This document shows positions 14,501-63,962 of a stretch of DNA of 64,000 nt, piece after piece; within the stretch, counting starts at the first letter, position 1; the number at the start of each line of letters is the position of its first letter. The position numbers were made by a program, and so were the translations under genes. The stretch lies in IMG/VR virus record IMGVR_UViG_3300033070_001583, positions 1-64,000 of that record; one strand, 5' to 3'. A model generated the notes under the pieces. The model worked only from the letters and a program-made list of their open reading frames with translations, did no database searches and had not been told where the DNA came from. The DNA comes from a virus (lineage: Duplodnaviria > Caudoviricetes).

Positions 14501-15176
14501 TTATGATGTTAGCGATTGCGTTCTTAAGAGTTGTACCTCTTAGCTCGACGTTATCTTCTAGAATCGAATACAAAGTATCATCGAGATCGATCTGCTGTTC
14601 CATCAGATTTTGGATATTGTGACCGATTCTTGCCTGGGAGAGAGAAATTGCAGATACGCTCAACACGTTCGAGAGTTGCTTTCCTGTTTCGATCGCTCTT
14701 TGAAATCTCTCTCTGTCGCTTCGAACTATATTTGCAGCAGCTTCGCTATACTTTGAGTGAGACTTGTCTGCCTCTGCACGAGACCACCTTGTAAATTTCA
14801 AGAGATTCTGTTTATCTCTCAGGTATTTTCCAAAGAGTGTCAAGTTTCCAGAATCAGTATAAACTGGTCTGTATTTTGCAAGATATATGATCTCTGGCAG
14901 TATCTGTGATGTCGAATCGACAGCACCATACGTGCTAAATGTTGATTGTACCCTCGGCGGATCCTGTGAGGGTTCAGGAATGAGATCTTTTGGACGGATA
15001 TCTGGCTTCTCTGCTGTTGGTGCAGGAATTCCTTCTTTATTTTTACCCTTCGCCTGTGCAGATGTACCGTCTTTCACTTTCTTGGGAGGAGGCTTCTTTG
15101 CGTCCTGTTTTGGAGGCGAGCTCTGAGTCGGTTGCTGATTGATTTTTGTCGATACATCGCTGAGTGGTTTCTTCAT
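11592..15176 (-). CDS. Large hypothetical, probably virion, protein (1194 aa)
   Basis: Long ORF inside the structural block, ATGA-coupled on both sides. No recognisable catalytic motif. Confidence 0.6.
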   Translation of the reverse strand: MKKPLSDVSTKINQQPTQSSPPKQDAKKPPPKKVKDGTSAQAKGKNKEGIPAPTAEKPDIRPKDLIPEPSQDPPRVQSTFSTYGAVDSTSQILPEIIYLAKYRPVYTDSGNLTLFGKYLRDKQNLLKFTRWSRAEADKSHSKYSEAAANIVRSDRERFQRAIETGKQLSNVLSVSAISLSQARIGHNIQNLMEQQIDLDDTLYSILEDNVELRGTTLKNAIANIIKDLGNVRNLRVLYSNWISSVPSDSAGTAVYRRSLSALTQEIGRKDTRRAFAWLEDRDPSIETQDCYDKLKFIASPSIQNAISILNGQTNIKSVYSPFLSSISTIQDAYTKFSSQRKIASILFGIEKELKYSRLILDGKNATRLQSDFNFVAQQTGNQNFPQAVTGVSESFVGYTNSFVNSKALDSITLRPTAKVGIAAFESDYQSVAGGYLTPAPIYYTDSLISQFAGITKDDNVSAYRDDIKSVQDAFVAHCAEVDVFTTKLKKNRHKSASDLYNDFVLHLLVRPEELQGKTTELPDDDLDRYSVSNFAKKSISDPLCAVFNLATQDPKLLAMLCTYTVIRSYEDLSIYASNFSDKTTQQNQQQTGYQALSTSTTSAAAGKLLDSIVTRVSEYVQANRGNSAGNSGSVLNSIGDVALKESLADVKSPIFFTACELVRDFIKKLDGDERSSTALLKTRRTAFGYLSDLDMASAYFYAFALFVSTHVGSDIAGTVQKTPTTAADQNAHESKKKKKNNYNPAQEKPVDQNTTVYSITQPKFDITSSRRNVLQDIKTLKTREIAHHIFPLVCINTVLDSINLAIGTFRNNKKEFQKIVDTIGADGFYKIFDEQQISLVRERFDRYAVRMRLDSGTTPVIIQETHPKDFDFALLQAKQPIRRHPTADNARLMQIGFPRGFSKFSANSDRDKSGRVGQNQKDIIRIAVTRTDLELPNVVFKPLYRTYELSRFVDWEFLERSKSPNDVQTTDFAVSHTGKKLVTAGDRAFSDQSYGFLSQQEKNSLMRSHLEDIELRYYVSMTIGVDINEDEYPDISKTSQIIPYVQESVTERENSEKVKNTSSPPDRPTPKITEDTVSRAEKKVLDKGGTASNDLDNNVNEFLERFNRFGEHTDATNFLKRYFVASRFDRVFSIIVDPNEFVVDETKTKISDSDMDHLVKSGKLEISKDGTVRVGTIPGDVSYETYTISAEFVR

Positions 15177-17323
15177 AATTCAGCACCAACTATTACAGGT
15201 TCGGTTCTCACTTCTTTTCCCAACTCGTAGTCATCATAAACAGGTCTCAGACCGAAGATCATCTGACCGACATGATCGTCAGATATTACAATATCAAAAC
15301 TCTGTTGGAGATTCGACGTAGCTGATCCAATCAGTTCCCTCAGCCCTCCGTCGTATCTGTATATTTGAATGTGATCGATGAATCTTGATCGAGACGTATT
15401 GCTTAGTTCCCACGAGATTGTAATTTTCTTTTTCTTCACCACCACGCGGGATGACAAAATTGTCGGTCTGATATCTGGAATAGTGATTTCGAAGTACTCC
15501 TCTTGACCGACCCTTCCGTATTCGAATTGACTCGAGCCAGAATTTTTCGATCTAGTGGCTGCAGAGGCAATCGCTCCAGTTCTCAGTGTAGTTGGATGCA
15601 GATGCACAGACGGTTTCTGCTTGTACACTCTGCCTCTGTACGTTTTCTCCACCTCTAGTGTATCGTAAAGCGTTGATGCATCTCTCAACATTGGACAAAT
15701 AGAGTACACATACTTTCTACCAGCTTTCAGTGGAGAGAGCTGTAGCTTTGCCGCAAGCGATTGATCGTCAAACGTTCCACCCGCGATTATATCGAAACAA
15801 GCTCTCTCTCCAGTGAGACAATCTACTCTTGTAATGTCATAAGCAATCAGCTTTTTTAGCTTATCGCGGTCAGACATGGACTCGTTTTCGTATAGAGTAG
15901 ATTTTCCCTGCTGGGCAATCAGTTGCGCAACAATATCGGATTGGTTTTGTTGTATCTCTATTGAAACGTCGAATGTTACATTCGGTCCAGATTCAAGAAT
16001 ATCTGCTTTTTCATTTTCGACCCTGATATCAAGTTTTGTCTCAGGTACTGGAAGATGATAGTGCGGATAGCTTCCCGCAGTTCTCATTACTCCATTCACA
16101 GTGTAATACCTGATTGCATACTCGTATGAATTCCACTGCTTGACATTCGTATCGTAAACAGATTCGTGATACGAAAAATCGCTGACAGATCTAAATTCAG
16201 AAACATATTCGAATTGATCTATCGAATTTAGTTTCCTCTTCACGATAGCAAATGAAACTGCAGATTTAGGGAGTCTAAACGTGTCAATTCTCACCCCTAG
16301 CGCGTCGTATTTCACCATGAACGACGGCTCAGAATCCTGTACATCGGTCGATATAACGCCACTACCAAAAATATTTTTCTTTGAACCTGCATAACCAACT
16401 GGTACGGCTCTGTATATCGTTCTTCCGTTCGAAACCGCTGAAACGATGAATCTAGCCATCCCATTCACGGCTGATTGCGACGTTATGAATGTGTAATCGC
16501 TCGCCTGGATGTCATCGAGTTTTCTAGAATAGAGCTCAAAACTTTCGATATTCTCTCTCTCTTTTGACGTGACATTTATTACGTGATCGCTTCCAATACG
16601 TCTAACGTCTACTGTAGGTTCAAGCTTAGGAGAAAGAAATTCAACGAGAGTAGCTTGGTGATTCACAACAATCTCGTATGAGTCTACGACGACGTTTCTA
16701 TCGTCCTTCGCGGAAATCGATATTGTAAAAGATTCCTTCCCATACTTGTAAAGTCTGCAGTGAGCGATTTTTGTCGTCTTTTCGTCTAGTACTGACACAT
16801 AGTGATCTGGTTCAAGATCAGAAGCGCTTTTTACTGAAACTATATTTGCAGACGTAACTGCGTCATCAATTCCTGCGAGACTTATTAGAGACTTTGGTCC
16901 GGTCGGAACAACACTTGTACCCTTTCTCGCAGCTGCAATCGAGATAATTTTCTTTGATGAAAACGTTGATTTTGCAGGATCAATCTGTGAATCGATTACT
17001 TTTTTTGAAAGGAGAGGATTGTTCTGTATCTCATACGATGCTGATGTCACCGGAAATGTGTGAGTCAACTGAAAATTTGCTGGTAGCTCTGCGGCTTGTG
17101 TTGCTTTGTAAACTTTTTTTGTGATTGTTTCAACAGAGCACTGTCTCTTCTCGTCTCCTCCTATGATCTCTGCAGAAATAGTACCTGTAAACTTCGAAGC
17201 ATTCGATAGCTTTACGTTCAACGAGTAAACCGTAACATCACGAGAGCGATTATACGATTCAATCTCGTAAGAATCTTCGTCGATCACAAAAATCTGTTGA
17301 CGCTTAATCTTTATGGGAATCAT
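15173..17323 (-). CDS. Virion protein with beta-sandwich/Ig-like repeats (716 aa); second half of the 999-aa track ORF
   Basis: ATG at 17323, three nt after an in-frame TTA. Beta-rich pattern with YEYAIRY and YVYSICP motifs. Confidence 0.6.
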   Translation of the reverse strand: MIPIKIKRQQIFVIDEDSYEIESYNRSRDVTVYSLNVKLSNASKFTGTISAEIIGGDEKRQCSVETITKKVYKATQAAELPANFQLTHTFPVTSASYEIQNNPLLSKKVIDSQIDPAKSTFSSKKIISIAAARKGTSVVPTGPKSLISLAGIDDAVTSANIVSVKSASDLEPDHYVSVLDEKTTKIAHCRLYKYGKESFTISISAKDDRNVVVDSYEIVVNHQATLVEFLSPKLEPTVDVRRIGSDHVINVTSKERENIESFELYSRKLDDIQASDYTFITSQSAVNGMARFIVSAVSNGRTIYRAVPVGYAGSKKNIFGSGVISTDVQDSEPSFMVKYDALGVRIDTFRLPKSAVSFAIVKRKLNSIDQFEYVSEFRSVSDFSYHESVYDTNVKQWNSYEYAIRYYTVNGVMRTAGSYPHYHLPVPETKLDIRVENEKADILESGPNVTFDVSIEIQQNQSDIVAQLIAQQGKSTLYENESMSDRDKLKKLIAYDITRVDCLTGERACFDIIAGGTFDDQSLAAKLQLSPLKAGRKYVYSICPMLRDASTLYDTLEVEKTYRGRVYKQKPSVHLHPTTLRTGAIASAATRSKNSGSSQFEYGRVGQEEYFEITIPDIRPTILSSRVVVKKKKITISWELSNTSRSRFIDHIQIYRYDGGLRELIGSATSNLQQSFDIVISDDHVGQMIFGLRPVYDDYELGKEVRTEPVIVGAEL

Positions 17324-17326
17324 CTT

Positions 17327-18172
17327 TAACTCACTGAATTCGAGACAAAAAATACGAACGAAATTGTTGCAACCATTCGCGTCAGTGAACGTTTTCCCTA
17401 GGAATACAATCAATGGATTTTCAGAAAAGACTCTTGCCTGGAGCTTCGAGATATCTCCTCCGGAGTACTCGTAACTCTGCATGATGATATTTCCCTCAAC
17501 TGTTGTCGGATCGAATACGATCCGTTTTGAAGGATACGATTTCATCTCCAACCTAACATCTTTGACTGTTTTCTTTCTTGTCGCCTCGCCACTCGGTTTG
17601 TAAACACCTAGCTTGTCTCCATCGCGATCAATTGGTGGCATGTAACTGAAGTTATCGAGTGTTGACATGTCAGGATCTTCAAAGAGAGAATCGTGATCTT
17701 CAATCTTTTCTACTACGTTGTAACTTACTGGGCTCTCTTGAGTAACTGTGAACGAAACATTAGACGGACCTGCAGCAAAGCCATCGTCTCCAAAATCTTT
17801 GTTGACTGTCATCAAAATTCTTTGACGAGAGAGATTGACAGATGGCAACGCTGTCAGTTCATCAGTAATCGAATCGAGAGATCCTGTACTAAAGATTCTC
17901 GATCCAACGAGGTTAAACGTCTCTGACTTCAACGGAGCAAGCTTTCCGGAATCGTCTGACTCTAGAGTCACGAGATCGTGCGGAGAGCTGCCTTGTTCTA
18001 TGAATGCTAGACCTGCTACATCGTATGAGCCAGATACTGGAGCCGAGTAAACAACTCCGGTATCTGTCACGCTGGCATAGGAAATTTTGAAGGTACCAGC
18101 AGCAAGCTGCTTTCTTCCCTCGCTTGTTATTACTACATCTGCGATCTGAGATGCTGGATCAAGAATTCCCAT
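17327..18172 (-). CDS. Virion protein, N-terminal paralogue of 9091..9807 (281 aa, TTA stop)
   Basis: MGILDPASQIADVVITSEGRKQLAAGTFKI resembles MGLIDNSTNSPILDAVLTDAGRALIAA. The only in-frame TTA of the 999-codon ORF is at 17329..17327. Confidence 0.65.
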
Positions 18173-18181
18173 GTACTCATA

Positions 18182-19564
18182 TTACAATATCTCGCTCGCA
18201 AGAGTTGCAAGTTCTGAACGTACTCCTCTTATGAGAGATGCATGGGCAGAGATCTTCTTCCCTGCGAATCTGTCTACGACAATTGAAAGACCGCACGTTT
18301 TTGCATTCACGTGAGGATTATCAATCTGAGACATGTCTCCCATGAGAATTACCTTCGTGCCCTCTCCAGCTCGCGTGATAATTGTCTTGAGCTCGTGAAT
18401 TGTCAGATTCTGTGCTTCGTCGACAATGAAATACGAGTTTGTAATAGATCTTCCACGTACGTGTGAGATTGCTGCGATTTCGATTGTACCGTTATCAATC
18501 ATCAGATCCACGTAGGGGTCACCCGTTGTTACCTGAGAAGAGATACCATACGAGTTTTTGCCGTCCCTTCCAGACTTGGTCTGGCCACCTTTGCGTTCAT
18601 TCTTGGAAGAGTTCGGAAGTAGCTGAACGAGGTTATCCTTGATCGATCCAATCCAGGGCATCATCTTCTCCTCGATTGTACCCGGGAGGTACCCAATGTC
18701 TTTTCCAACGGGAATGACCGATCTTGTCACAATGAGCTTCTGATATACAGCTTTCTCGCCATGAGAAAACTTGTTCAGCTGACCTAGGCCGGCCGCTAGG
18801 GCAAGAAGAGTCTTGCCAGATCCAGCGGCTCCAGTCATCAATACAAGAGAGACATCTGGATCCGTCAAAACATCAAGAGCGTACCACTGCTCTTTATTCT
18901 GACCGGAGATATTGAACACCTTTTGCTGTTTGAGCGTTTCTAGCTTCCCATCTTTCCATCTGCAAAGCATCGTAGCAGAATTTGCTTCGTTGATCGCAGT
19001 CACGAAGTCATTTCCAACTGTCTCAATCGGCCAGTTTGAAGTGTCGAGAAACTTCTGTCTGCACAGAGTTTCGAACTCAGTCGGCGCAAGAAAAACGCTA
19101 TCGTCAGCTTTGACTGGAGTTGGGTCTTTCTTGTAAACGCCAGTTGCACTTTTGAAATCCTCAGATGTGATTCCAAGAGCTGCTGCCTTGACTCTAAGGT
19201 TCGCATCTTGGGTTACGAGGATAGGACAGTCAATCCCTGATGTTATTACAGCTTCAATGATCTTGTTGTCATTTTTCGTAAAATCAAGCTGATTCTCATC
19301 AAGCTGCTTTCTTTGAGTAAGAATGAACCTAAGTTTTCCACCTTCCGGAGTTGTAAGTTCACTTCTATTTTTCCCACGTGTGAGCTCATCAAGATTTCTG
19401 ATCACTGTGCGAGCCAGCAATCCGACATCGTCTTGCCGCGATTTCAAGTGATCGAGCTCTTCAATAACAACAAGAGGAATGTATACGTCGTGCTCTGCAA
19501 AACACGCATATCCCTCAGGATTAGTGATGAGAACGTTTGTATCGAGCACGTAATTTTTCTTCAT
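18182..19564 (-). CDS. phoH: PhoH-family ATPase with N-terminal PIN domain
   Basis: YVLDTNVLI (PIN), GAAGSGKT, RGRSI, IVDEAQN, GDMSQID. Confidence 0.92.
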   Translation of the reverse strand: MKKNYVLDTNVLITNPEGYACFAEHDVYIPLVVIEELDHLKSRQDDVGLLARTVIRNLDELTRGKNRSELTTPEGGKLRFILTQRKQLDENQLDFTKNDNKIIEAVITSGIDCPILVTQDANLRVKAAALGITSEDFKSATGVYKKDPTPVKADDSVFLAPTEFETLCRQKFLDTSNWPIETVGNDFVTAINEANSATMLCRWKDGKLETLKQQKVFNISGQNKEQWYALDVLTDPDVSLVLMTGAAGSGKTLLALAAGLGQLNKFSHGEKAVYQKLIVTRSVIPVGKDIGYLPGTIEEKMMPWIGSIKDNLVQLLPNSSKNERKGGQTKSGRDGKNSYGISSQVTTGDPYVDLMIDNGTIEIAAISHVRGRSITNSYFIVDEAQNLTIHELKTIITRAGEGTKVILMGDMSQIDNPHVNAKTCGLSIVVDRFAGKKISAHASLIRGVRSELATLASEIL

Positions 19565-31636: not shown

Positions 31637-32292
31637 CATACAGAGAAATCGATACAACAAAACCGGTTCGACAGGGTACAGAGTATGGAGAATCTTACTA
31701 CACGAGTAAGAACTACGCTGGGTACCTTGAACGGTCTACTCGGTACGAACGGATGGTATCAGACATTCACCACGATGTGTTCAGAAGGGTCGGATTGGAC
31801 TTCGTTAGTAAGCCTGTTCTTGACTTTGGCTGCGCAGCTGGATTCACTGTCGCATCGCTAGGACAGCTTGGGTACAAGTACGTCACTGGGTATGATGTAT
31901 CAGACTGGGCAGTACAATGGGGAAGAGCGAATCTTGGACTCAGTAACCTCACAACGAACGTCAAGTCTGTTGAGGGAAAGTACTGGGCACTCATGCTTGC
32001 ATTCGATGTATTCGAGCATATGAGCGAACCGGTTCTTGCAGAAACACTCTCTACTCTGAAACCAGATCATATTCTTGTAAGAATTCCAGTATCTGAGACA
32101 GACGGCGGTCGATACGTTCTTTCTGTGTCGGAGGCAGACAAAACTCACATTATACGACTCACAAAATCATCTTGGTGTGAGTGGTTCTCGAATCATGGGT
32201 ACACAAGAGTGTTCAGCGTTAACACTGGTGGATTTTACGATTCGGATGGCGTTATGTGTGCAATGTTCAGAAAATCTTCGATAAGATGGTGA
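31633..32292 (+). CDS. Class I SAM-dependent methyltransferase
   Basis: VLDFGCAAGF, TGYDVS, AFDVFEHM. Confidence 0.88.
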   Translation: MTYREIDTTKPVRQGTEYGESYYTSKNYAGYLERSTRYERMVSDIHHDVFRRVGLDFVSKPVLDFGCAAGFTVASLGQLGYKYVTGYDVSDWAVQWGRANLGLSNLTTNVKSVEGKYWALMLAFDVFEHMSEPVLAETLSTLKPDHILVRIPVSETDGGRYVLSVSEADKTHIIRLTKSSWCEWFSNHGYTRVFSVNTGGFYDSDGVMCAMFRKSSIRW

Positions 32293-32293
32293 T

Positions 32294-32653
32294 ATGAAGA
32301 AAACATTTCACGATATCTTCTCTGATCAGTTGAGACTCATTCTTGGAAAATACAGAGATGATCGTCTCAACGATTCAACATGCTCACTGATCTATCAGGA
32401 CATCTATCAACAGTTGCTTGAGGTTCTCAAAGGTTCGTCTCTCAACGTGCATCAAGACACCGTGAACTGGCTTTCACAGCAGTATTATGACGGTATCAAG
32501 ATAAACGGTAATAGCTCGCTGAATCCTAACATCTTTACAAAGAGACCGAATCTTACAGATCTTCCTACAAAAGATCTTGTAGTCCTGCTTGCAATGACGC
32601 AAAAGACAGGTTTTGCTCGCGATGTTGCAGAGGAGCTCAAAAAGCGTGGATTA
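32294..32653 (+). CDS. Hypothetical protein (119 aa, TTA stop)
   Basis: Ends EELKKRG then TTA at 32651..32653, the reverse complement of the convergent gene's TAA. Confidence 0.65.
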
Positions 32654-33421
32654 GATACCTCGTGGGTTCTTTAGCATACCGCGTGCAGCAAGATCATAAA
32701 TGAGAGATGACGTAGTGATGTGACCAATCACTCCCCTTGATCCCCCGCCAGCTGCAGCAGGTCCAACGGGAGGCTTAGCAAGCCAGAATCTTCCGTTGCT
32801 CTGCTTGATTGTTCTTTCACAGTTCTTTATGCACTGTCCTCCTTCATCAACTTGTCCACCATCAACTGATTTCAGGAGAGTTCCATCTGGAGAAACTTCT
32901 TTACACACAAGAACGTGTTCGAATCCTCCTCCAGCGGCTCCTCCAATGAGAACAATATCTCCCGCTCCTGGAAGTACGAGCTTGTCGCCAGGAACCCAGT
33001 ACTGACGGCCAAGCTGCTTTGATAGTTTTTGTGCGCCGGCAACGAAATATTCAATACTCTTTGCGACTGCCCACTTTGATGCTTCCTCTTGCTTTGAGAT
33101 GTCGCCATCGAGATTATCATCATCTCTGTTCGTGAACTTATCGATTTCAACTCCCGAAATCGACAGAACAATACCTGCAAGATCCGTGCAAGCCGTATAT
33201 CCTGCCCATACATGACGACCCTCTGTCATCAAAAACAGCTTTGCAATCTGCAGTTCAGTCGCACCTGGTTTCTGAGTTCCATCCGAGAAATACTCTGCAG
33301 TTCTTACGATTGCTTCCTGAATTCCCTCACCAGACATTGAAGTAAAGTCGACAGACGAGAACTGTGACATCACAAGTTCTGTCAAACGTTTCCTCTGAGA
33401 AATCCATTGTTGAAAATTCAT
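32651..33421 (-). CDS. CHAP/NlpC-P60-like cysteine hydrolase (putative peptidoglycan hydrolase)
   Basis: TACTDL (Cys), GDIVLI, FEHVLVC (His), SVDGGQ; RBS AGGTGAG before the ATG at 33421. Confidence 0.6.
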   Translation of the reverse strand: MNFQQWISQRKRLTELVMSQFSSVDFTSMSGEGIQEAIVRTAEYFSDGTQKPGATELQIAKLFLMTEGRHVWAGYTACTDLAGIVLSISGVEIDKFTNRDDDNLDGDISKQEEASKWAVAKSIEYFVAGAQKLSKQLGRQYWVPGDKLVLPGAGDIVLIGGAAGGGFEHVLVCKEVSPDGTLLKSVDGGQVDEGGQCIKNCERTIKQSNGRFWLAKPPVGPAAAGGGSRGVIGHITTSSLIYDLAARGMLKNPRGI

Positions 33422-33447
33422 AACGCTCACCTAAGAATAGATACCAA

Positions 33448-35879: not shown

Positions 35880-36259
35880 CAGTCATCGGCGATCAAATCA
35901 ATATCTCTTCGATCAGAGCAAACATGGATGGCCCGGGCTTTGCAGCCACAAAGGGCGCAGTCGTACCGCAATACGAGATGCTTGAGAGAGCGATCAACAT
36001 CAAGCTACCTGCGAATGTCACCGCAAAGTTGATGATGAATCCCAGCGAAAATATCTGGGACGATACAGGAAAAGCAGTACCTGCCCAAGCGAGCGTGATT
36101 CGGATCTGCTCAGCTAGTGAAAACCCAGTGCAAGTTTTGCAGATGATGATCGACAATCAGAGCAAAACTTCTAAAAATAACATATTCTGCATCTACTGGT
36201 TGCTTTTTCAAGGACCTGATAACAACTGGTTTACAAGAAGCGCTTGGGTAAAATGCTTA
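35876..36259 (+). CDS. Hypothetical protein (127 aa, TTA stop; track extends it to 36499)
   Basis: TTA at 36257 turns a 256-nt track overlap with the next gene into a 7-nt ATGCTTA overlap. Confidence 0.6.
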
Positions 36260-44518: not shown

Positions 44519-46353
44519 CAACATCAGATACAAAAACACAGCAAGTACGCCAGCGAACGTATCTGAACAGAGACTTCGCGACAAACAGGAATGCAATTGT
44601 CAATTACGCAAGGAAGTACTACCCAACAAAAATTCAAGATCTATCTGAAACAGGTGTTGGAGGTCTTCTTGTAGATATGGCGGCAGTCGTAGGAGACAAT
44701 CTAAACTTCTATCTCGATTTCCAGTTCTCAGAACTCGATATCGATACAGCAGTAGAAAATGTCAACATTGAACGTGCTCTTAGGAACTCTGGCGTTCCAA
44801 TTTCTGGTGCGGCGCCGGCGATTGTACCAGTTGATATTACGTTCGAGATACCGGCAGTAACGACAGGTGGAAAATCTGAGCCAGATACGACTGCACTTCC
44901 AGTACTACAAACTGCAGTAATTGCTAGCGATTCTGGAGTGCAGTTCAATCTATTGGAATCCATAAACTTTACAACAAGAAACGCAGATGGTACTCTTGCA
45001 GCATCTGTTTCAATACTGAAAACATTCCCTGATGGAACAATTAAAAGCTACGCTATCACGAAAAGAGGAACAGCACTCTCTGGAAATATAACGACAGAAA
45101 CTGTTGTCATCGGTTCAAACTTCGTGCCATTCAGAAGAGTTGCTCTCTCGCAGAAAGATATTTCAGAGATTATCAGCGTGCAAGATGATCTAGGAAATGT
45201 GTATTACGAAGTAAAAGATTTGAGTCAAGATACCGTTTTTGTTCCTGTTACGAATACGTCGTCTGACTCGATGGAGGTACCGTCAAGCCTGAAAATGATA
45301 TCTGCACCGTACCGTTACACAAAGCAAGTTGAACTTTCGACTCGATCTACTGTTCTAACTCTCGGTGGCGGTAATGCAGAAACATTTGAGGATGACGTAA
45401 TTCCAGATCCATCGGACATAGCGCTTCCGTATCAGTACAGATCTAGCTTCCCGATTGAGCCAATCGATCCGAATTCTTTGCTAGCAACGAAGACTCTTGG
45501 AGTATACGCCGTCAATACAAACCTGAACGTGACGTACAGGTATGGAGGAGGATTGAATCACAATGCAATCGCAAATTCAATCAGATCTGTCGAAACATTT
45601 CAGCTTACGTTTCCTGGAAATCCTTCATTCTCGGTTTCAAGGAGCGTGAGAGCATCGATTAAATGTAACAACCCTGTTCGCGCAAGAGGCGGTGACGATG
45701 CTCCTTCTATCGATGAGCTGAAGTCTGTTGTTGGCGCATATAGGAATTCGCAATCGAGAATCGTGACTGCAAGCGATATGCTGGCCAGAGTGTACACGCT
45801 CCCATCAAATTTTGGACGTGTGTACAGGGCCGGAATCAGATCGTCATCTAATTCTCCATTTGCAACAAAACTTTACATCATCTCTAGGGACGGAGATGGT
45901 AAGCTCGCTGTATCAAGTGATACACTGAAGAAAAATCTAAGAACGTATCTCAACCCGCAGAGACTGATAGGAGATGCAGTCGATATTCTTGATGTGAGCA
46001 TCGTAAATCTGAAAGTCGAATTTGATATTTCAACCGATTCAATATCGAACCGTCAGGTTGTGATCCAGTCAGTCCTCAAGAATTTGAAAAAGTTCTTTGA
46101 CACAAAGAACTTTAACGTAGATCAGCCGATCATCATCACTGAGGTATCGAAAGTCATCTCGATAACGCCTGGTGTCATATCTGTAAATCAGATCAAATTT
46201 TCTGAATTGCAGGGATTCATAAACAACAGAGAATATCCTGGTTCGTCTTTCGATGTTGCCGGATCAACGAAGCGAAACATTTTGTACCCGCCAGAGGGCG
46301 GAATGTTTGAGATAAGATATCCAGACACTGACATTATTGGAAGAGCAGAATTA
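44515..46353 (+). CDS. Baseplate wedge protein, gp6/baseplate-J-like (612 aa, TTA stop)
   Basis: YLNRDF, LNFYLD, YRYGGG, RIVTASD; ends YPDTDIIGRAE then TTA-A-ATG of the next gene. Confidence 0.85.
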
Positions 46354-56799: not shown

Positions 56800-57960
56800 A
56801 TGCCAACGTATAAAGGATCTATTGAGCATCTGTTTGCCGTGATACCGACAATATCGGGAACGATTCAAGCAATGTTCAAAGTCACATATGACTTTCTGAA
56901 CAGCGGATCTGATCTCGGGATTCAGAGACTTGCATATAACACCGGGACTCGACCGAGCGACTGCGGACAAACAGGTACGAATTTTTATGATCAGAATCAG
57001 CCGTTCGGAGATAATAGCTGGGCGTGTTTTAGATTTGCGTCTGCTTCTGTTCCATTCGACATTCTCATACAGTACTCTGGTACGGGAGTAACATTCGGTA
57101 ACACGACGAACGATCATGCGAAAATAGGAGGTTCTGCAGCTGCATCACAAAATAATTTTGGAATTGCTGTTGCGACTGCATTTAGCGGATCGACGGCAAT
57201 CGACCCGTGGAACGGAACGACAACGCTAAGCGGATCTGATCGAAAGGGTACGGCGGTCTGGACAAGCGGATCTGCAACAAATAGATTGTCTGTATTTCCA
57301 CGCTCTAATGCATTTGGAGGATCGTTTGTTACAACAAATGACGATATGGTCGCATTCGTATTTCAGTTTTCGACTTCGGCTCCGCACAGATATCAAATCG
57401 TTGCAAGCAAAGATTCAATCTATATCGCACGTGATCAGTGGGATGACTCTGCATACGATAAATTTTTCTATGCTGGATCGTATAATCCGATTAGCGGAAG
57501 CTCTCCTACTGTACCATTTGTTGTTTGGTCTCCCCTTACGACGAATGAAACTGCTGGTACTCAAATACCAGCAACGACGGTTGGAACGTCGTACTCTACA
57601 GACGGAGGAATAGCACATCCGCTTTTTGTCGATACGAAATTTCTATCTATTGATCGTCTTTCGTATTTTAATCAAACAACTGCGTTGCAACCGAATAACT
57701 CTTTCTCTCCAACACAATACGATGAATTTCCGATCTACGTTGGAATGAACGAAACGACATCATCGTACGGAATATGCGGCACGCTAGACTTTGTACGCGA
57801 AATATACAAAACGAATGTGCACGATATCAATAACGTTACACAAAGGGCCGTACTAGGATCAGACTCATCTGTTTCTTCGATCAAGCACTCAATCCCATGG
57901 GTTAGCGGAACGACTCCAGGAACAGGTACAACTCGCGCAGGAGTTCAATTCTCGAGGTTA
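56800..57960 (+). CDS. Putative tail fibre/virion protein (386 aa, TTA stop)
   Basis: Ser/Thr/Gly-rich; ends TTRAGVQFSR then TTA-C-ATG of the next gene. Confidence 0.6.
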
Positions 57961-57961
57961 C

Positions 57962-58264
57962 ATGGCAGTAATCAATTCAAATTTTGCAGGTACACTCGGC
58001 ATTCAGCACGGGCCTAGAATCAGGGAACTGAATACTAATAAGCTTGTTGTAGAATTTAGTGGATCGATTCAATACGTAACGGTGACGTCTCCTCTCAAGA
58101 CGGTCTACAAGATGAAGGCATGGTCGAACGTAAGCAACCGTCACATTTATTGGGTTGCAACGTCATCGACGACTGGGCATCCTGTGTCTGGTTCAATGGC
58201 TGATACATCGCACGTTGTTGGTCATCAATCTCTTGACTTTACTGCGTTTGATATCACTCCATTA
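57962..58264 (+). CDS. Small virion-type beta protein (100 aa, TTA stop)
   Basis: TTA at 58262..58264 is the reverse complement of the convergent gene's TAA. Confidence 0.6.
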
Positions 58265-58717
58265 GGAATCGTGAATTGAAGAGCGCTCGATCAGAAGCTG
58301 AGTTCTCGAGACTGAGAACAACTCTTCAATCTGCTCCCAAGTTACGTCACGATCATCACTAAACACTTGGATCTTGCTCCAGTCTAGATGATTGCACCAA
58401 TGAGGAAATCCTCGGGCACGATATGCAGTCCAATCCGGAGAGTATCCAGAAGCAATGATTGTTGCAAGCAGAGCAGATAGTGCAAGGATCATTCCCATGC
58501 CATCGCCTTTCCCGGCTTTGATAACTGCACCAACGATCGAATGATGCGTTGCCCACCATTCACCTGGGACGGGATTCCTGTGAATAAAGCTTTCAAACGG
58601 GCCCTTGTAAAGTGAAACGTCACCTTTGATATGACGTTTTCCGCAGTCAAGAATTCTTTCTGCTTTGATGAGAATGTCGTATGCACGAGAAGACGGAGTC
58701 TTATCTTTTTTTGACAT
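58262..58717 (-). CDS. Hypothetical protein, weakly DUF6197-like
   Basis: SIVGAV...IQVFSDDRDVTWEQIEELF resembles the C..GA...WND...T..EV...F pattern. Confidence 0.45.
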   Translation of the reverse strand: MSKKDKTPSSRAYDILIKAERILDCGKRHIKGDVSLYKGPFESFIHRNPVPGEWWATHHSIVGAVIKAGKGDGMGMILALSALLATIIASGYSPDWTAYRARGFPHWCNHLDWSKIQVFSDDRDVTWEQIEELFSVSRTQLLIERSSIHDS

Positions 58718-62773: not shown

Positions 62774-63040
62774 ATGGCAGCATTGGGAGATATTGTAAAG
62801 TTTACACTGACGGTTGAAAGTGCATTGCTCGACCGCCCTGCAATTGTGATGGACGCAATGGGCGATACACTTCAACTGATGGTGTTTGTTGACGGATTGG
62901 CTGATTCGACCGGTCTTGAAGAGAACGAAAAGATCGAAAATCAGCCTGCAGTTGGCGGAAATAACGTACCAGTCAAGTGCGTTATGAGATCATCTGTTTC
63001 AAAGAACCTCACGCAGACAGCCGGGTGCTGGCGTCCCTTA
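62774..63040 (+). CDS. Small phage beta-barrel-like protein (88 aa, TTA stop)
   Basis: RPAIV...LQLMVFVDG...SSV...GCWRP then TTA; I recall this phage family ending at G.W..P. Confidence 0.6.
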
Positions 63041-63060
63041 GACGCTAGAGAGTCTCGCTT

Positions 63061-63109
63061 CTTAAATGCACAATGGGACTTCGAATCGAAGTCCCATTGT
63101 GCATTTAAG
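63061..63109. terminator. Perfect 24-bp inverted repeat with 1-nt spacer; probable bidirectional terminator or cruciform
   Basis: CTTAAATGCACAATGGGACTTCGA-A-TCGAAGTCCCATTGTGCATTTAAG between convergent genes. Confidence 0.75.
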
Positions 63110-63113
63110 CCTC

Positions 63114-63962
63114 TAATCTGAACTTGCGTCTCTTACCCGTTGGATGAATCAGGATGAGATCATTCGAGAAACAGACAGATCCGTCAATCTGAGCTCCTTC
63201 TGGTATGACAGAGTCCAAATCGAGAGCGCATCCGCTTCCATCTGTCACGTCGCAGTAAATGTCCCAGCTGTAAGCGCAGGACCACTCTACGAATTCAGCA
63301 TCTGTGAGGTGATACTCATGCTTGTCTTGAAGCTTATTTAGCAGCACGTCAATCAGTCTGTTAAGCTTCGTTCCAGTCAGACGTAGCCCACTGTATGCCG
63401 CAGGGTCTCCAGCGAGATACGAGTCATTCGCGAGCTTATCTGTGTTCCTTCTTGTTGCAGGGACATATTGCGCATTTTTGAGACGGTCCGGAGGATTAAA
63501 CATATGCGTTGTCGCAATCCCACGACCAGAAGTTTTGAACTCAGGCACCCAGACAGTACCTGCCGGAGAGAGATAGTTCTGATGCGTCTCATACGTGCCC
63601 TTTGAGCGTGTTACTGAATCGATGAGACTGGAAAGCTTATTCAAGAAAGTTTCAGCAGGCAAGAGATCTGTTTCAAGATCTTGATTCATTGAAAAATTCA
63701 ATGTATATGAAACTTTGTCATAATTGCCAGCAGGTCTCTTCTCTTCAAATCCGGTGTGTAGGTAGTAAGTGTATCCTGCAGCGTCAAGAGCTTTATTTAC
63801 GATCTGTTGGAACGTGTTCTCGTCAATCGTAATGAGACGTTTCGGTAGTCTCTCGGCAGCTGCAAGAATCTCTTGAAAATACTTACGACGAGCCCATACA
63901 TCGTCTCCAGCTTGCCCAGGTGGTTCTGATTCGAGAATCAGATTCTTTAGTGTATGATTCAT
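63114..63962 (-). CDS. Hypothetical protein with LKNLILE N-terminus (282 aa, TTA stop)
   Basis: Ends ILIHPTGKRRKFR then TTA. Confidence 0.65.

Follow-up and report, generated by a model that had tools for sequence, protein, structure and literature searches.

A stop triplet shared by convergent genes points to UUA as a probable termination codon in a lineage of large T4-like phages

How can a single triplet close two genes that are read towards each other? The question is raised by positions 32651-32653 of the window, by which we mean the whole stretch of DNA analysed here, namely the first 64 kb (64,000 nucleotides) of the linear 75,153-bp IMG/VR virus record IMGVR_UViG_3300033070_001583 (G000). 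The record has a completeness of 21% according to the CheckV estimate, and the phage is a large, T4-like one with a GC content of ~44%. From 32642 to 32659 the plus strand reads AAG CGT GGA TTA GAT ACC, where TTA is codon 120 of an open reading frame at 32294..32674 (32294+357 = 32651), and a minus-strand frame at 32651..33430 terminates GGT ATC TAA on the identical three base pairs. An earlier note on this DNA had described the plus-strand TTA and the minus-strand TAA as lying on one and the same triplet, and on rechecking of frames and letters this was found to be correct as written. Under translation table 11 the plus frame continues for seven codons past ...KRG, the TTA included, to a TAG stop at 32672-32674, giving a protein of 126 aa whose add-on LDTSWVL is the antisense of the last codons of the minus gene.

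As TTA is the reverse complement of TAA, convergent genes lying in antisense codon register can share one triplet, and a bidirectional stop codon of this kind would be a geometric consequence of a code in which TTA is a stop; in the standard code it is impossible. We propose that UUA ends translation in this phage lineage instead of encoding leucine, alongside UAA, UGA and a rare UAG, and comparison of related genomes leads us to give this reading a probability of about 0.82. At the junction considered here (site 1), the 119-aa plus protein would then stop on TTA and the CHAP-like minus protein on TAA, with neither reading past the triplet, and if TTA stops, the add-on downstream of it stays untranslated. 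The features on which the argument draws are collected in the table.

Features of the window, with their positions and the state of the corresponding site in related sequences
Feature	Position	Strand	Remarks
Plus gene, 119-aa protein	32294..32650	+	no Pfam or PHROG family; orthologue P0003 also 119 aa
Shared stop triplet (site 1)	32651..32653	both	plus gene ends TTA, minus gene ends TAA; reversed in the relative
Minus gene, 256-aa protein ending ...NPRGI	32654..33421	-	259 aa if GTG 33430 is the start
Table-11 add-on to the plus frame, 6 codons + TAG (LDTSWVL including the TTA)	32654..32674	+	absent from the 119-aa orthologue
Shared triplet (site 2)	58262..58264	both	TTA is codon 101 of plus gene 57962..; TAA ends minus gene 58262..58717
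TTA ending the SbcCD-like gene, 1035 aa	224..226	-	protein of the relative 1034 aa, ends TGA
TTA ending the 127-aa gene 35876..	36257..36259	+	within the ATG-CTT-AAA start of the next gene; relative has TGA
TTA ending the baseplate-wedge gene	46351..46353	+	1 nt ahead of ATG 46355; C-termini of three distant homologues lie 0-3 residues away
TTA ending the tail-module gene 56779..	57958..57960	+	1 nt ahead of ATG 57962; relative has TAA at the same codon

Among IMG/VR and GenBank phages no close relatives of either site-1 gene were found, and only a large protein collection gave them. A syntenic relative, reached through the 126-aa form of the plus protein, is contig NODE_3 of ENA sample ERZ869929 (255,832 bp), and the same region is also present on shorter contigs from four other samples. 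The two phages share ~82-87% amino acid identity and are saturated at synonymous sites. The NODE_3 contig is circularly permuted relative to the window record, as seen at one locus (L044), and the full genome is therefore probably ~256 kb in size. We read 141 kb of it in all (record 3.7-24.1, 33.1-140.7 and 238.2-251.3 kb), which contained T4-like structural, replication and nucleotide-metabolism genes.

Between window and relative, the plus gene shows a pN of 0.128 against a pS of 0.80 over 119 compared codons, and the minus gene a pN of 0.095 against a pS of 0.71 over 256. Because pN lies far under pS in each case, both can be regarded as real genes under strong purifying selection. The ATG of the plus gene follows 1 nt past the TGA of an upstream methyltransferase gene (TGA-N-ATG, 32290-32296), and the 256-aa form of the minus protein is supported by an orthologue (L006) that begins MNFQQW at an ATG. 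The minus protein had been called CHAP-like in the earlier note; viral CHAP-domain clusters rank first in an ESM-Atlas feature search (0.95-0.96), whereas no match was found in Pfam, PHROG or PDB sequences. The protein contains a cysteine (...YTACTD...) and a histidine (...GFEHV...). A candidate peptidoglycan hydrolase of CHAP-like type is hence a reasonable lead, short of a demonstrated membership of the family. Neither an intrinsic terminator nor a hairpin was found at the site-1 junction. Elsewhere in the window, a long perfect palindrome (ATGCACAATGGGACTTCGAATCGAAGTCCCATTGTGCAT) resembling a bidirectional terminator lies at 63040-63114 between convergent genes; site 1 has no such element.

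The relative provides a natural experiment at this very triplet, in which a single base flip exchanges TTA and TAA between the strands while both protein ends are kept. In the window, the plus gene reads ...KRG and then TTA and the minus gene ...NPRGI and then TAA; in the relative, the plus gene reads ...KRG and then TAA and the minus gene ...NPRGR and then TTA, this TTA being in frame exactly at the position of the window's TAA. The DNA alignment places GGA TTA GAT of the window over GGA TAA TCT of the relative, so that site 1 is kept with reversed polarity. A T/A transversion at the middle base would be the sole substitution that retains both stops, and the relative has precisely that flipped state. 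The plus orthologue (82% identity) is exactly 119 aa long. The earlier note had singled out LDTSWVL as the segment whose presence in homologues would make it a genuine extension; the closest non-identical homologue, recovered on several contigs of different samples, does without it. Table 11 would lengthen the relative's minus gene by 32 codons, the TTA included, running antisense through the conserved plus gene. As for the overlaps which the standard code would entail, the plus add-on is missing from the orthologue and the relative's minus add-on is missing from the window. As far as these alignments go, both proteins hold their lengths in both genomes only if TTA terminates. The window state (TTA/TAA) was found again in an independent JGI contig (L011) and the flipped state (TAA/TTA) in five contigs from different samples (L006-L010), and since both recur in independent contigs, neither is an assembly error.

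The exchange is not confined to site 1. In a gene-by-gene survey of the window against the fetched loci of the relative, eight homologous gene ends were found at which TTA of one genome corresponds to TAA or TGA of its counterpart; at one of the eight, the two stops are offset by a residue. The window has TTA where the relative has TAA or TGA at 32651 (plus strand), 36257, 57958 and 224, and it has a standard stop where the relative has TTA in the minus gene at 32651 and in the genes 23152.., 39812.. and 40590... Both genomes have TTA at the ends of genes 9085.. and 36244... No TTA was aligned to a sense codon anywhere in the comparison. At 36257, TGC TTA of the window corresponds to TGC TGA of the relative, and the change turns CTT into CTG in the overlapping next gene, which is synonymous. 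In three cases (46351, 57958 and 58719) a single base separates the TTA from the ATG of the following gene, a spacing equal to that of the TGA-N-ATG ahead of the plus gene. Judged by these alignments, the two genomes, whose synonymous sites are saturated, demonstrably treat TTA as the functional equivalent of a stop.

Homologues at greater distance point in the same direction. The table-11 'extension' after the TTA of the SbcCD-like gene amounts to 25 residues in the window, 72 in a 94%-identical relative and none in a 77% relative; being unconserved in length and sequence, it behaves as untranslated sequence. Eleven of 12 more distant SbcCD homologues end at the window's TTA or within three residues of it, and a Microcystis phage homologue does likewise. 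In the case of the baseplate wedge, three distant homologues have their C-termini (...RAI, ...RITTL and ...RVRSFG) at the point that corresponds to ...RAE and the TTA in the window. Two features by which a codon reassignment may be recognised are thus found here, namely that the codon is absent from conserved internal positions (in the window's record, and alike in the relative's 141 kb) and that it occurs where homologues carry standard stops, as in the eight swaps and the distant homologue ends. The proposal of the earlier note that UUA acts as a stop is supported by the flip in the relative, by the other exchanges of TTA with stops and by the ends of distant homologues.

Codon usage over the whole record was counted in 79 long ORFs comprising 24,609 codons. 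TTA occurs 29 times in frame (frame 0) as against 378 and 256 times in frames 1 and 2, which makes it the rarest sense codon of the record, the next being CGG with 78 occurrences. CTA, whose overall frequency as a trinucleotide is about equally low, has 256 in-frame occurrences and TTG has 253, so UUG is not affected. In distant IMG/VR relatives of similar GC, which were identified through a radical-SAM protein of 48-60% identity and use the standard code, TTA accounts for 6-16 per 1000 codons, from which 155-390 in-frame TTAs would be predicted here in place of the 29 found. Moreover, 19 of the 29 fall within 25 codons of the end of a table-11 ORF and 14 within 10, for which the background is 8.0% and 3.2% respectively (P about 1e-14). 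Four of the remaining ten are upstream of starts that the relative's orthologues support; the last six comprise two in short antisense ORFs, one at a TTA-AAG-ATG junction at 17327 and three that could not be placed (21827, 70976 and 72036). The TTA at 17327-17329 (minus strand), with AAG ATG coming next, is the sole mid-frame TTA of a 999-codon ORF at 15173..18172, and this ORF probably represents two genes, of 281 and 716 aa, which table 11 fuses.

When genes are called with four stops, the 82 genes of the record end on TGA (43), TTA (22), TAA (13) and TAG (4), that is, ~27% of them end on TTA. The relative behaves alike: over 112 kb, in-frame TTA accounts for 46 of 35,767 codons as against 559 and 305 out of frame, its 'internal' TTAs reduce to gene junctions (for example TTATG, or a double TTA and then ATG), and the gene ends in the 141 kb read are 71 TGA, 40 TTA, 31 TAA and 2 TAG. 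The base after TTA stops is T in 27 cases, G in 15, A in 10 and C in 10, with no clear difference from the base after standard stops. A +1 frameshift into TAR was considered and is ruled out, the base following TTA being mostly T or C. A downstream in-frame standard stop lies nearer to TTA-ended genes (median 6.5 versus 16 codons, P = 0.012) in a comparison for which the TTA set is biased by its selection; this could mean that TTA is a weak or conditional stop, and we do not rely on it.

The sharing of the triplet is in itself less telling than it may seem. The earlier note had considered the exact coincidence hard to explain if TTA encodes leucine, which was overstated, as a single in-register overlap has a chance of about 1/3. 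Under a four-stop code, neither gene of a convergent pair can run past the TAA of its partner when their codons are aligned in antisense, and with a chance of ~1/3 for this register, roughly one in three tightly packed pairs is expected to share its stop. A survey of convergent junctions had been suggested in the earlier note. Shared TTA/TAA triplets are present at 2 of 6 credible junctions in the window's record (32651 and 58262), 3 of 7 in the relative and 2 of 3, 2 of 9 and 1 of 4 in G001, G002 and G004, which gives 10 of 29 for the five related genomes together. This figure is far above what a smooth distribution of gap sizes would yield (P about 8e-7 at a 5% null), and it matches the 1/3 chance of register (P = 0.52). 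At site 2 the relative has no shared triplet: its plus gene keeps the TTA, and its minus gene, which carries a 17-nt indel, ends 8 nt further at another TAA, giving an 11-nt overlap of the two genes. Since 10 of 29 fits one third and the sharing at site 2 is not conserved, triplet sharing most likely arises as a side effect of the code and of compaction and not as a selected device. Three other observations do go beyond chance: the frame-specific loss of TTA across the genome, the concentration of TTA at ORF ends and its exchange with stops.

How, then, do other explanations fare? With the standard code, TTA would be an extremely rare leucine codon, the two ORFs would overlap by 24 nt and their register would be a 1-in-3 coincidence. 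That a lone in-register convergent overlap is not improbable has to be granted, and a phage of a sister clade (G003, 55.6% GC) does have a very rare TTA that is nevertheless sense. However, relatives at 44% GC use TTA at the ordinary rates given above, and this explanation leaves unaccounted for why 22 of 82 genes have the rarest codon precisely at a conserved C-terminus, why eight ends are swapped with TAA or TGA and no TTA faces a sense codon, and why the extensions are unconserved; we regard it as very improbable. Less credible still is an artefact, be it a triplet misread in sequencing or assembly or one ORF that is not a gene, in view of the two triplet states seen in independent assemblies from several samples and of the strong purifying selection on both ORFs.

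A more serious alternative treats UUA as an unassigned or 'hungry' codon, for which the host has no tRNA-Leu(UAA), or has lost it to destruction by the phage or by a host defence; ribosomes would pause and then be released by rescue (ArfB-like or trans-translation) or by slow non-cognate release, so that UUA would be a gene end in effect without a strict reassignment of the code. The lack of a release factor gene and of tRNA genes in the 216 kb examined would suit such a state, as would, weakly, the tendency of downstream standard stops to be close. A PIN-domain RNase fused to a PhoH-like ATPase, encoded at 18182..19564, would suit it too, being only a candidate RNA nuclease. On the other hand, ~27% of the genes end in this way, SbcCD-like repair, baseplate and tail genes among them; the next ATG often lies 1 nt downstream, where a stalled ribosome would stand in the way of coupled initiation; proteins tagged by tmRNA would be degraded; and the free exchange of TTA with TAA or TGA over saturated synonymous divergence argues for equal efficiency. 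We therefore consider it unlikely. Still less likely is a conditional or leaky stop, with UUA read as leucine at some stage (for example early, when host tRNA is present) and as a stop at another, giving short as well as extended or fused forms. The in-frame arrangement TTA-AAG-ATG within the 999-codon frame and the double TTAs and backup stops near some gene ends would be in keeping with it, whereas the extensions are unconserved between relatives of 94% and 77% identity, and read-through at site 1 of the relative would proceed for 32 codons antisense through a conserved gene.

If UUA is a stop, as we favour, a factor that reads UUA is implied. Reading of UUA is not known from bacterial RF1 or RF2. 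The codon could be decoded by a class-I release factor of widened specificity, encoded by phage or host, with tRNA-Leu(UAA) lacking or unused alongside it. This pairing is our best guess, held at slightly under even odds and by analogy with the changes in RF2 and RF1 of organelles (PMC12574857); depletion of the tRNA together with a rescue route is the main alternative to it. The fuller claim that such a widened class-I factor reads UUA in a bacterial translation system, which would make this the first sense-to-stop code outside organelles, is more tentative again. The release-factor domain PF00472 had no match in G000, G001, G002, G004 or G005, no tRNA gene was found in the 75 kb of G000 or in G001, G002 or G004, and neither a release factor among the called genes nor a tRNA was found in the 141 kb of the relative; a rescue factor was found in neither of the two. 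A family of short release factors lacking domain 1, with a member in G003, was tried as the UUA reader and rejected, as TTA is sense in G003 and none of the 80 IMG/VR loci that carry the family has the TTA-stop signature; their codon-reading loop, RVPPTE, is nearly invariant over these loci. Such class-I homologues occur within tRNA clusters of related T4-like jumbo phages, without a link to TTA loss. The PIN-PhoH fusion mentioned above is on the minus strand (Pfam E 2e-26 and 5e-42) and is a possible RNA or tRNA nuclease, judging from its domains.

Stops of this type have precedents in organelles. UUA is a stop codon in NCBI translation table 23, that of labyrinthulean (Thraustochytrium) mitochondria. 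As in the phage, a leucine codon there has come to mean termination, is missing inside genes and is present at the stops of homologues; the setting differs, being a small organelle genome with a linked change in mtRF2a as against a phage of ~250 kb or more with a bacterial host. The UUA stop of these mitochondria has been tied to the substitution of Ser204 in mtRF2a (cited in PMC12574857). Stops of UUA and UCA in peDinoflagellate plastids and of UUA and UUG in the mitochondria of Marsupiomonadales and Pseudoscourfieldia have also been described, and the organellar UUA or UUR stops accompany specific substitutions in factors of RF2 or RF1 type (PMC12574857). These plastids and green-algal mitochondria resemble the phage in the change of UUA from sense to stop, in a translation system of bacterial type and in the large share of genes that end on it; they differ in being organelles with an identified modified pRF2 or mtRF1a, and UUG is spared in the phage. 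In the literature, the change of UUA to a stop was found only for labyrinthulean mitochondria, peDinoflagellate plastids and some green-algal mitochondria, and no report for a phage or bacterium was found.

Non-standard codes are also known in crAss-like, Lak and other large phages, in which TAG is recoded to glutamine and TGA to tryptophan, and these phages carry suppressor tRNAs and sometimes release factors. Like the present phage they are large and uncultured; their change, however, is from stop to sense, whereas here it would be from sense to stop, with no tRNA found in the 216 kb read. In the bldA system of Streptomyces, UUA is a rare regulatory codon which is still read as leucine by a dedicated tRNA, and a GC content of ~70% explains its rarity (PMC10732093). 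The near absence of TTA from coding sequence is common to Streptomyces and the phage, but the phage has a GC of 44% and has TTA at gene ends. With a phage lineage in which UUA closes about a quarter of the genes, the sense-to-stop change would reach bacterial or phage translation, and our own contribution lies in the bidirectional stop and in the base flip as a natural experiment. Annotation of such phages with table 11 would produce false C-terminal tails, false fusions such as the 999-aa frame, and false overlaps. If the reading is true, a UUA stop may double as host shut-off or as a genetic barrier, by which UUA-containing host genes are truncated and UUA-free phage genes are not.

The distribution of the signature was surveyed in 80 loci found with the major capsid protein (MCP) of the relative. 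The TTA-stop signature was observed in the window's own clade (L039, L052/G004) and also in a second clade, represented by two IMG/VR records of T4-like phages of 70 and 104 kb (L053/G001 and L060/G002), in which 28 of 72 and 37 of 102 called genes respectively end on TTA. In the MCP tree (a quick maximum-likelihood tree with no bootstrap), standard-code lineages separate the second clade from that of the window, and this separation suggests that T4-like jumbo phages evolved or acquired the TTA stop on at least two occasions. The record G003 (IMGVR_UViG_3300037010_002844, loci L133-L148; 309 kb, 91% complete) occupies a sister position to G001 and G002. It was examined as a further TTA-stop phage and rejected, its TTA being depleted yet sense: the codon falls within the conserved helix-hairpin motif (G-x-G) of a 5'-3' exonuclease, and also within the TVAV-L segment of the phage's own release factor. 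G003 encodes a tmRNA and 49 tRNAs, none of them Leu(UAA); the tRNAs include two with a CUA anticodon and a stop-reading one with the anticodon UUA. Its short RF1-type gene, a member of the short-factor family mentioned above, lies at 260532-261359 inside the tRNA cluster.

A few further observations concern related sequences and the end of the window. At 15368-15720 of one locus of the relative (L036; record ~48.4 kb), a 93-aa gene ends on TTA and is followed by a perfect hairpin (arms TGCCACTGTAAA and TTTACAGTGGCA) right before the portal gene; the gene caller had merged the 93-aa gene, hairpin and portal into a 'portal' of 1207 aa. Intein or HNH insertions are present in the relative's portal, ribonucleotide reductase large subunit and DNA polymerase III alpha (L048/L049 at record ~102-109 kb, L036 and L047), and the DNA polymerase III alpha was called in several pieces (633 + 344 + 497 + 343 aa). 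In a standard-code distant relative (L012, 3275-3616), ARAGORN calls a tmRNA with the tag AEPSFAIAA just 3' of the radical-SAM gene, which may be a false positive. Finally, over 62.0-64.0 kb of the window the GC content climbs to 0.53, as compared with ~0.44 elsewhere, and a tandem array of small minus-strand genes begins there.
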